A DNA stretch of 64,000 nt, taken from NCBI GenBank assembly GCA_963702005.1, contig OY969696.1, positions 1,600,001-1,664,000 on the forward strand. The letters are read 5' to 3'. The translations under genes were made by a program, and so were the position numbers. This document shows positions 59,068 to 59,810 of this stretch, one piece after another. The first letter of the stretch is position 1; each line of letters opens with the position of its first letter. Below the pieces are notes generated by a model. That model saw only the letters and a program-made list of their open reading frames with translations, was not told where the DNA came from and searched no databases. This stretch comes from Candidatus Aminicenantes bacterium. GTDB taxonomy: Bacteria > Acidobacteriota > Aminicenantia > Aminicenantales > JAFGBC01.

Positions 59068-59114
59068 AAGCTCGTAAGACATATAGTATAAGACATATAC
59101 TGACGAGTTTTTTT
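59068..59114 (+). terminator. Hairpin plus T-tract containing an 11-bp direct repeat
   Basis: CTCGT...ACGAG followed by T7. TAAGACATATA occurs at 59075 and 59089. Confidence 0.4.
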
Positions 59115-59134
59115 GCAGCGTCCTTGAAATAAAA

Positions 59135-59218
59135 TGCCCAGGGCGGGACTCGAACCCGCATGGCCTTACGGCCGCGACATTTTAAGTGTCGTGCGTATGC
59201 CTATTCCGCCACCTGGGC
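59135..59218 (-). tRNA. tRNA-Leu(TAA); CCA not encoded
   Basis: GCCCAGGTGGCGGAATAGGCATACGCACGACACT-TAA-AATGTCGCGGCCGTAAGGCCATGCGGGTTCGAGTCCCGCCCTGGGCA, with a long variable arm. Confidence 0.93.
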
Positions 59219-59680
59219 TCTTTTTCTGCTACGATGCGTAGGCCTCAAGCTATGACAATTAGGACATAATATTCTTAAATTTTCCAGACGATTATCATTT
59301 CTATTGCCGTTGATGTGGTCCAATTCCAGCGGCAAATATCCATTTTCGGATAGCACGGCCCAGCCGCATTCCTCACAATGCTTTGGCTTCAAACCGGCGT
59401 TGAACAATCTGTTTTTGAGCTTAAAGCTTTGAACCGAACTGCCTAGGATTAACACGTTTGATAGAGGAATTCGAGGCTTTCCTTTGCCTTTAATACCTCT
59501 GTTCCATCCATGCCCTTTGAAATGTTTGATATTGAGTCCATGTTCCTTTATGTACTTTTTTATCTGTTCGTAATTTCCCCCCGCTCCTTTTAAGTTCAAT
59601 TTCTGGAGAACCTGCCTATAACTCGTAGAAGTTATGACGGCATTCTCCAAGTCACTCAGCTGCCATGACCTCCTTCTCAT
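59201..59680 (-). CDS. HNH endonuclease (159 aa) whose last 18 nt lie inside tRNA-Leu(TAA)
   Basis: CEECG...LELDHINGNRNDNRLENLRILCPNCH. The ORF ends GCC CAG GTG GCG GAA TAG, which is tRNA nt 1-18. Clearly AT-richer than the host. Confidence 0.92.
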   Translation of the reverse strand: MRRRSWQLSDLENAVITSTSYRQVLQKLNLKGAGGNYEQIKKYIKEHGLNIKHFKGHGWNRGIKGKGKPRIPLSNVLILGSSVQSFKLKNRLFNAGLKPKHCEECGWAVLSENGYLPLELDHINGNRNDNRLENLRILCPNCHSLRPTHRSRKRAQVAE

Positions 59681-59686
59681 GGCATG

Positions 59687-59715
59687 ATTATATGATATGG
59701 AAGTCGCCAAGACAA
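59687..59715 (-). promoter_or_regulatory. Promoter for a leaderless HNH-tRNA transcript
   Basis: TTGTCT-17bp-TATAAT-6nt-ATG on the minus strand, with no Shine-Dalgarno sequence. Confidence 0.65.
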
Positions 59716-59760
59716 TTAATTTATTAACGCGTTTACCCTTTAAGAAAGATATAAGCCGAG

Positions 59761-59810
59761 AATCCCTCGGGGCGTAAGCTCCGTGCCGGTTCGAGCCCGG
59801 CCCCCGGCAC
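59761..59810 (+). pseudogene. Orphan 3' half of a tRNA-Leu (anticodon-loop 3' side to acceptor end)
   Basis: AA-TCCCT-C-GGGGC-GTAA-GCTCC-GT-GCCGG-TTCGAGC-CCGGC-CCCCGGC-A gives the variable arm, T arm and acceptor 3' strand. No matching 5' half was seen nearby. Confidence 0.8.

Follow-up and report, generated by a model that had tools for sequence, protein, structure and literature searches.

We have analysed a 64,000-nucleotide (nt) stretch of a Candidatus Aminicenantes genome (contig OY969696.1, positions 1,600,001 to 1,664,000; hereafter the window), in which a compact unit of promoter, HNH endonuclease gene and transfer RNA (tRNA) gene for Leu(UAA) abuts the 3′ half of a second, different tRNA-Leu. 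We think it likely that this unit is a free-standing homing-endonuclease cassette of ~640 base pairs (bp) that replaced the resident tRNA-Leu(UAA) at the resident's own locus, in inverted orientation. Comparison of sequences across the order indicates that the replacement took place in situ and inverted, that the incoming and resident tRNA types (A and B, respectively) are close to mutually exclusive, that the exchange was repeated, that the HNH gene tends to decay, and that the cassette has foreign affinities; the HNH enzyme would, on this basis, cleave the type B gene, with the type A gene resisting the cut. ARAGORN calls two tRNAs in the window, and the features of the locus are the following (G and L numbers, g and f are our analysis labels for genomes, loci, genera and families, G000 being the genome of the window):

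59123-59134, minus strand: T-rich tail after tRNA A, at which homology to other type A loci stops on the left (from match limits)
59135-59218, minus strand: tRNA-Leu(UAA) of type A (ARAGORN; Rfam tRNA, 58 bits)
59680-59201, minus strand: HNH endonuclease open reading frame (ORF), 159 amino acids from ATG, directly upstream of tRNA A (Pfam HNH_3 and HNH)
59687-59715, minus strand: sigma-70-like cassette promoter, TTGTCT-17 nt-TATAAT (consensus scan, 10/12)
59716-59760, minus strand: upstream cassette end, which reaches as far as the native remnant and holds a conserved GGGTAAACGC block
59761-59809, plus strand: remnant of the native type B tRNA-Leu(UAA), from position 37 to A73, its 5′ half and promoter deleted

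The cassette stands out by composition, with a guanine-cytosine (GC) content of 43.4% at 59125-59760 against 62.1% for the whole window; GC runs at 0.38-0.47 over ~59000-59760 and returns to ~0.64 beyond 59760. Both this step and the start of an opposite-strand tRNA-Leu 3′ half at loop positions 37-38 had been placed at 59760/59761 in the initial annotation, and both were confirmed there. The same annotation had drawn cassette and remnant together as 59068-59810; the pair exists, but its left edge lies at ~59123-59133 rather than at 59068, as matches to other type A loci begin at 59123 (G001), 59126 (G161) and 59133 (G243). The open frame of the HNH gene extends over 59201-59710, with an alternative TTG start at 59710; the ATG at 59680 is probably the true start, because in the G161 orthologue this ATG is shared and closely preceded by a TAA. 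At the other end of the gene the final five codons and the stop codon fall within the tRNA A gene, and the promoter at 59687-59715 is predicted to drive the HNH gene and tRNA A as one transcription unit. Inspection of 30 type A loci by eye shows a similar -35/-10 pair ahead of the majority of them, whether or not they retain HNH; in G183 the pair is degenerate. Homologues of 59716-59760 occur in G241, G243, G240 and G161, and a GGTAAACGC block resembling this upstream end is also found in a Saccharibacteria locus (L094). At the remnant/cassette junction (59756-59770, minus strand) a 6-bp hairpin with a T-rich stretch behind it was flagged by a scan as resembling a terminator; the G241 junction has no such hairpin, and its occurrence here is probably a coincidence.

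The remnant at 59761-59809 reads as the last bases of the anticodon loop, the 3′ strand of the anticodon stem, the variable arm, the T arm and the 3′ strand of the acceptor ending at A73, and belongs to a class II tRNA. It is identical at 46/49 positions to full-length type B tRNA-Leu(UAA) genes of related genomes, a resemblance far beyond chance that also settles the isoacceptor: of the two anticodons with which A37-A38 had been thought compatible, TAA holds and CAA does not. The 5′ half of type B, which had been reported as unseen nearby, has no match in the whole genome (pattern search, ≤2 mismatches). Types A and B differ in acceptor stem, anticodon stem, variable arm and T stem, just as had been described, and are 73-80% identical overall.

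The genome itself is a single contig of 4.31 Mb with 52 tRNAs (ARAGORN). Of the leucine anticodons, CAG, CAA, TAG and GAG have one gene apiece and TAA has two calls, of which the second (3,143,121-3,143,209) comprises an anticodon stem-loop and 3′ part with no acceptor or D arm. This second call is therefore merely a fragment, and the genome-wide tRNA check proposed in the initial annotation finds the type A gene at 59135-59218 to be the only intact tRNA-Leu(UAA), with the resident type intact nowhere in the genome. By wobble rules, tRNA A is presumably the sole decoder of UUA codons. The fragment at 3.14 Mb differs from the window remnant at 4/50 positions. In that region a type B 3′ fragment (3143121-3143370) lies ~150 nt from the 3′ fragment of a tRNA-Glu(CTC)-like gene, integrase genes are found 14-52 kb away (3,091,140; 3,109,245; 3,128,743), and in G007 a full tRNA-Glu(CTC) adjoins a similar Leu fragment; the 3.14-Mb fragment was probably left by integrative elements as an att-type (attachment-site) scar, and would have no connection with the window cassette.

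The distribution of the two types was surveyed in 246 genomes of the order, with type A scored at a best E value ≤3.8e-27 and type B by its 5′ half (≤2 mismatches), which is nearly invariant across the order. Type A was found in 52 of the 246 genomes, with a partial copy in one further genome (G185), and the type B 5′ half in 155. Among the 194 genomes without A, 153 have B; just two of the 52 A genomes (G157 and G214) have both, and 41 genomes, many of them incomplete assemblies, have neither. The flanks on the 2-kb contig (L154, G214:C400) that bears the type B gene of G214 (f3) match those in the f4 genome G153 (L144, G153:C33) at 99.6% identity, so the contig is probably mis-binned and the coexistence of A and B in G214 false. 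By family, type A is present in 2 of 3 genomes of f1, 37 of 87 of f4, 7 of 27 of f3 and 6 of 20 of f7, and in none of the 109 genomes of f2, f5, f6, f8 and f9. When 401 genomes were sampled from the phylum, type A was found in five, all of this order, and in none of the 384 from outside it. Where other genomes of the order were examined, their type A genes were 91-99% identical to tRNA A of the window. Two type B genomes, G017 (L018, G017:C1:13000-23000) and G023 (G023:C1:1979682-1988503), carry the 5′ half 3-5 times at a spacing of ~1.6-4.5 kb, with two full tRNA-Leu(UAA) genes plus a 3′ fragment in G017, a pattern that suggests small elements inserting in tandem at tRNA-Leu(UAA).

The flanks show that the cassette occupies the place of the native gene. 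A and B loci were compared by tblastx of 1.5-kb flanks, and every A/B match pairs either the downstream flank of A with the upstream flank of B, or the upstream flank of A with the downstream flank of B. This inverted pairing is found within g10 (G013 with A, G019 and G136 with B), within g4 (nine A loci, against G163 and G172 with B) and within g18 (G243 and G241 with A, G245 and G033 with B), as well as between families f7 (G239, A) and f2 (G003 and G011, B). The synteny comparison called for in the initial annotation thus shows sister species with the same flanking genes holding either the native gene or the inverted cassette, and the presence/absence polymorphism at one homologous locus by which homing genes are recognised is seen in G013/G019, in G183/G163, and in G243 and G241 against G245 and G033. 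When G183 (A) and G163 (B), two genomes of g4, are aligned at the nucleotide level, the two flanking genes are collinear; the intergenic space of G163 consists of a ~100-nt spacer and the B gene, and in G183 the spacer and B positions 1 to ~37 are exchanged for an inverted A cassette, the B 3′ half staying in place. In G001, from the same genus as G000, type A is flanked by counterparts of window 53655-55079 on one side and of genome position 1,667,004 on the other, and the tRNA locus is broadly syntenic between the two, G000 being longer by ~4 kb to the left of it and by ~7 kb to its right. This extra DNA corresponds to window 55080-59006 and to 59846 through the window end (on to ~1,667,000).

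B remnants adjoin the promoter end of the cassette in 5 of the 30 A loci inspected, and their closest native B genes are as follows:

G000: several f4 genes, 46/49 identical
G183: G163/G172, same genus, 45/48 identical
G241: G038, another genus of the same family, 46/48 identical
G243: G245, same genus, 36/40 identical
G184 (decayed remnant): the gene of G157, same genus, identity not counted

The breakpoint falls at position 37 or 38 in G000, G183 and G241, and in G000, G241 and G243 the cassette sequence leading to the junction is homologous. A common junction joined to lineage-specific remnants is expected from repair of a broken B locus off a cassette template, and would seem hard to obtain by descent alone; it points to at least four separate replacements in the order. 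No cassette allele holds an intact B gene. These comparisons bear out the initial proposal of a resident tRNA-Leu disrupted at the anticodon loop and then replaced, the window remnant being the in-situ 3′ half of native type B beside the sole intact UAA gene, type A.

The nuclease has the sequence features of an HNH (beta-beta-alpha-Me) endonuclease, with the catalytic His and Asn and the CxxC pairs. It matches Pfam HNH_3 (E 4.5e-8, 33 bits, cut-off 24.8) and HNH (E 3.2e-6, 27.6 bits, cut-off 21.4), and the HNH motif with its paired CxxC zinc ligands is intact (CEEC...DHINGN...N...CPNCH, following CxxC...DH..N...CxxCH) and conserved in the relatives compared. Residues 1-155 align to positions 3-156 of the 245-position PHROG profile phrog_10822 (“HNH endonuclease”; E 6.7e-42), a match to a profile longer than the protein that indicates family membership by sequence only. 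HNH families alone were matched in Pfam, PHROGs and NCBIfam, with no GIY-YIG domain; the NCBIfam matches were weak, HNH-domain only and far below cut-offs, and a sequence search of solved structures gave nothing significant (best E 0.012, to zinc-finger proteins).

The window genome has one copy of the HNH gene. Searched at the protein level, the 246 genomes of the order yield it at full length just twice among the 52 with type A (G000 and G161) and as fragments in G243, G240, G183, G013 and G135. Further remnants were added by tblastn with inspection in G001, G184, G012 and possibly G164, for a count of at least 9 A genomes with a remnant. Matches in G187, G025 and G018 are to unrelated, longer HNH proteins and were set aside. 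The deletions differ by lineage: G243 and G240 retain ~17-23 N-terminal codons together with codons 137-169, G001 and G135 N-terminal codons only, and G013, G184 and G012 C-terminal codons only, and most other A loci are reduced to promoter, short leader and tRNA. To judge from these sequences, this is the pattern of invasion followed by decay typical of a homing endonuclease gene, and together with the alternation of native gene and inverted cassette in sister species it agrees with the testable part of the initial suggestion of homing without an intron. The two intact copies, from G000 and G161, share 73% DNA and 79% protein identity; identity by codon position is 82/90/45%, the non-synonymous divergence (dN) is 0.13 and synonymous sites are saturated, so both copies appear to have been kept by purifying selection.

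HNH relatives were found in 522 stretches of a one-genome-per-species collection, and the loci examined are the best 80 of these 522. They are 57-79% identical and come mostly from the candidate phyla radiation (Patescibacteria), the other sources being Elusimicrobia, one Omnitrophica, several metagenomic bins labelled Gammaproteobacteria or Bdellovibrionales, and G161. A tRNA-Leu(UAA) lies directly downstream of the HNH gene on the same strand in 79 of the 80 loci according to ARAGORN, and is recognisable in the partly N-masked 80th; the HNH stop codon is at or inside the tRNA in 50 of the 79 and 1-37 nt before it in the remainder. In the Elusimicrobia order containing L061, HNH occurs in 4 of 101 sampled genomes (three intact copies and one remnant, residues 112-155), and in 4/4 it is directly upstream of tRNA-Leu(UAA). 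A tRNA-Cys(GCA) is often found upstream of the HNH loci; in Saccharibacteria loci L069 (2880-2950) and L094 (2880-2960) the 3′ end of the upstream tRNA-Cys is partly duplicated. Eight loci of the candidate phyla radiation (L069, L083, L088, L097, L110, L129, L131 and L138) contain second tRNA-Leu 3′-end scraps, which are direct copies of 18-30 nt located 10-170 nt downstream of the linked tRNA, and L116 has a 5′ tRNA-Leu fragment upstream of its HNH gene.

In the HNH tree the Aminicenantes copies form one clade (100/99), sister to a Kerfeldbacteria locus (96/82) and nested in a poorly resolved radiation dominated by sequences of the candidate phyla radiation; 38 of 73 inner branches of this tree are open, L069, L096, L131 and L134 were dropped as too short, and the long-branch rows L071, L098 and L120 stem from crude ORF extraction. 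The tRNA of the Kerfeldbacteria locus has, by eye, the same acceptor and T arms as type A, and tRNA A is 80-86% identical to several HNH-linked tRNAs of the candidate phyla radiation, compared with 73-80% to type B. These affinities suggest that the cassette came into the order from outside, most likely from a donor in the candidate phyla radiation. The clade nesting and the patchy occurrence in Elusimicrobia likewise display the horizontal spread, at odds with host phylogeny, that characterises homing genes. More distant homologues are found in phages (251 records, 35-44% identical), where three of the four examined lie in tRNA arrays right before a tRNA: that of Gordonia phage GodonK overlaps tRNA-Glu, that of Escherichia phage EcSzw-2 ends 1 nt before tRNA-Leu(UAG), and that of Pseudomonas phage LCK69 is part of a tRNA array. 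Near the fourth there is no tRNA.

In the mechanism we propose, the HNH enzyme would cut an intact type B tRNA-Leu(UAA) locus and the break would be repaired off a cassette-bearing allele, with the B 3′ half and downstream flank as homology arm on one side and the conserved gene upstream of B on the other. The recipient's B 3′ half would prime synthesis where homology with the donor stops, and repair would remove the B promoter and 5′ half and install the cassette. Since a cassette allele has no intact B gene, the target would no longer be offered and the allele would be immune. Essential function would then be supplied by the divergent tRNA A of the cassette, leaving the cell dependent on A and the nuclease gene free to decay. 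The position of the cut is not readable from the junction, because any break to its left would give the same product. As a further layer, RNase P processing of the co-transcript may strip the HNH stop codon and expose the message to non-stop decay, tying nuclease dosage to tRNA maturation. More tentatively, and as a possibility we would not put at even chances, the window cassette could belong to a cross-phylum family of selfish nucleases with tRNA-Leu(UAA) as obligate cargo, which spreads by destroying and resupplying an essential tRNA and has moved a foreign tRNA from the candidate phyla radiation to Acidobacteriota; such “replace and addict” homing would need neither intron nor intein.

Several observations weigh against nuclease-driven replacement. 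Fifty of the 52 A genomes are without an intact HNH gene, so that A could owe much of its current distribution to descent, or to ordinary recombination of a cassette that lacks HNH. In G157, A and B may truly be present together. Relative to B the cassette is inverted, an outcome that ordinary templated homing does not yield, so the founding insertion would have been illegitimate. The tRNA remnants in the candidate phyla radiation have other breakpoints (3′-terminal, 18-30 nt, direct), so an insertion point common to all loci does not exist. By eye, no single position tells every HNH-linked tRNA apart from type B; ATAC, a motif of the D loop, occurs in just 55 of the 79 and is at most a lead, and no resistance signature emerged. 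Finally, public metagenome contigs cover the left junction and the tRNA-HNH join, and none covers 59692-59727.

The main rival is ordinary recombination, in which a promoter-tRNA A cassette spread by DNA uptake and exchange through its flanks and was kept by selection or drift, with HNH a passenger from the donor; selection might act, for example, if A escapes a toxin or phage-defence nuclease aimed at the native tRNA-Leu(UAA). The 50 A genomes without intact HNH speak for it, as do flanking genes conserved enough for homologous recombination and a neighbouring beta-helix gene 80-85% identical in DNA to f3 and f7 genomes, so that DNA of the locus looks exchanged between families. We nevertheless regard this explanation as unlikely, though to be taken seriously. 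The pairing of HNH with tRNA-Leu(UAA) in 80/80 relatives and 4/4 Elusimicrobia would be unexpected of a mere passenger, the intact HNH copies are under purifying selection, the phage homologues are typical free-standing nucleases of tRNA arrays, and the repeated identical junction with a native remnant is what break repair off a cassette allele predicts. Far less probable is the alternative raised in the initial annotation, that 59761-59809 is the att scar of a decayed tyrosine-recombinase element in tRNA-Leu and the HNH-tRNA unit its leftover cargo. Type B does attract integrative elements elsewhere, as the tandem full and partial copies in G017 and G023 show, and the second B fragment of the genome is 14-52 kb from three integrase genes, but for the window fragment the explanation fails. 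The nearest of 12 genome matches to Phage_integrase (PF00589; serine recombinases were not searched for) is at 1,543,292, ~115 kb from the locus; the intact tRNA is inverted and of another sequence type, giving no attL/attR direct repeat; the remnant is exactly where the native 3′ end lies relative to the downstream flank in sister species; and the inserted DNA is just ~0.64 kb.

A chimeric assembly join, or a split or intron-containing tRNA with a distant 5′ exon, is the least credible explanation, and we give it next to no weight. The initial annotation had asked for evidence spanning both junctions, and independent wetland metagenome contigs (from four runs) bridge 58941-59198, 59108-59300 and 59169-59512, confirming the left junction and the tRNA-HNH join. 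The right junction is not bridged independently, as there is no public contig over 59692-59727, and the deep contig cover of 59761-59835 comes from intact B genes in other organisms. Support for the right junction is given by the window assembly and by the same cassette-remnant architecture in four other genomes, the independent assemblies G183, G241, G243 and G184. The best-matching DNA sequencing run shares 0.24 of sampled words, and there is no RNA run among the matches listed. As for splicing, an Rfam scan of 57500-61500 (E ≤1) returned the tRNA and one weak unrelated match, without a group I intron, and the genome holds no B 5′ half that could serve as a 5′ exon.

The genes on either side of the replaced tRNA add some context. 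On the left, the beta-helix gene (57036-59006) was not found in G001, and its resemblance to genes of f3 and f7 genomes suggests exchange between families; upstream of it, at 59035-59064 (minus strand), is a strong promoter-like site (TTGACA-18 nt-TATCAT, 11/12), itself just downstream of a direct repeat of an 11-nt AT-rich motif at ~59077-59101. On the right, an ORF of 738 amino acids (59846-62062, minus strand) combines a ureide-permease-like membrane region (41-164) with an M19 membrane dipeptidase (375-731), and represents a fusion or else a read-through of two genes.

An essential tRNA gene present in single copy generally passes for a stable marker of vertical descent, and yet one such gene appears to have been replaced here at least four times in one order. 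If the nuclease drove this, the cassette would represent a third way into an essential gene without killing the host, by means of a spare gene copy, besides the two known homing ways of RNA splicing (introns) and protein splicing (inteins). The nuclease-driven reading would also explain why a strict pair of HNH and tRNA-Leu(UAA) recurs in many genomes of the candidate phyla radiation, and would make the cassette a route for tRNA exchange between phyla and a reservoir of natural nucleases that are likely to recognise a conserved tRNA gene. In the literature searched, which left subscription journals and supplements outside, we found no account of an HNH-tRNA-Leu(UAA) cassette on a bacterial chromosome, nor of a homing endonuclease replacing a tRNA.

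Homing endonuclease genes are reported, in an account attributed to Burt and Koufopanou from 2004, to pass through a life cycle of invasion, fixation, degeneration and loss. The window cassette resembles this in its patchy occurrence within genera, its few intact copies and its many independently deleted remnants at the same site, but its cargo tRNA cannot be lost once the native gene is gone, so that there is no return to a re-invadable empty state. Integrative elements that target tRNA genes rebuild the tRNA they split, and, like the cassette, they insert in a tRNA gene, retain its function with their own sequence and leave a displaced 3′ fragment. The cassette differs in having no recombinase, as far as the integrase family search reached, in bringing a complete, divergent and inverted tRNA gene, and in its size of 0.64 kb. 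A group I intron is known in the tRNA-Leu(UAA) of cyanobacteria and plastids, and shares with the window remnant both the tRNA species and the interruption of the anticodon loop, whereas the cassette has no ribozyme and no 5′ exon, and needs no splicing.

Closer in kind are nucleases encoded among tRNA genes. In the parts of the source available to us, T4 SegB is a free-standing GIY-YIG homing endonuclease of the T4 tRNA gene cluster that recognises a site with a conserved tRNA T-loop motif, and it drives inheritance of the gene encoding it and of neighbouring tRNA genes, with loss of the recipient's markers in the tRNA region (PMC2330249). SegB and the window cassette thus appear alike in having a nuclease gene among tRNA genes and a co-inherited tRNA. 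They differ in nuclease family, GIY-YIG in SegB and HNH here, and in setting, SegB acting between co-infecting phages and the cassette being on a bacterial chromosome; and the sections of the SegB report at hand describe neither destruction or substitution of a single-copy essential host tRNA, nor an inverted replacement or a beheaded remnant (PMC2330249). HNH genes beside tRNA arrays are also described, in the portions of two papers we could draw on, for mycobacteria, mycobacteriophages and cyanobacterial L-arrays (PMC5966550, PMC8421152). Going by these excerpts, the arrays share with the window cassette the association of HNH and tRNA and the horizontal spread, but they seem to be accessory additions of many tRNAs, whereas in the window one nuclease travels with one specific tRNA that replaces the chromosome's only copy.

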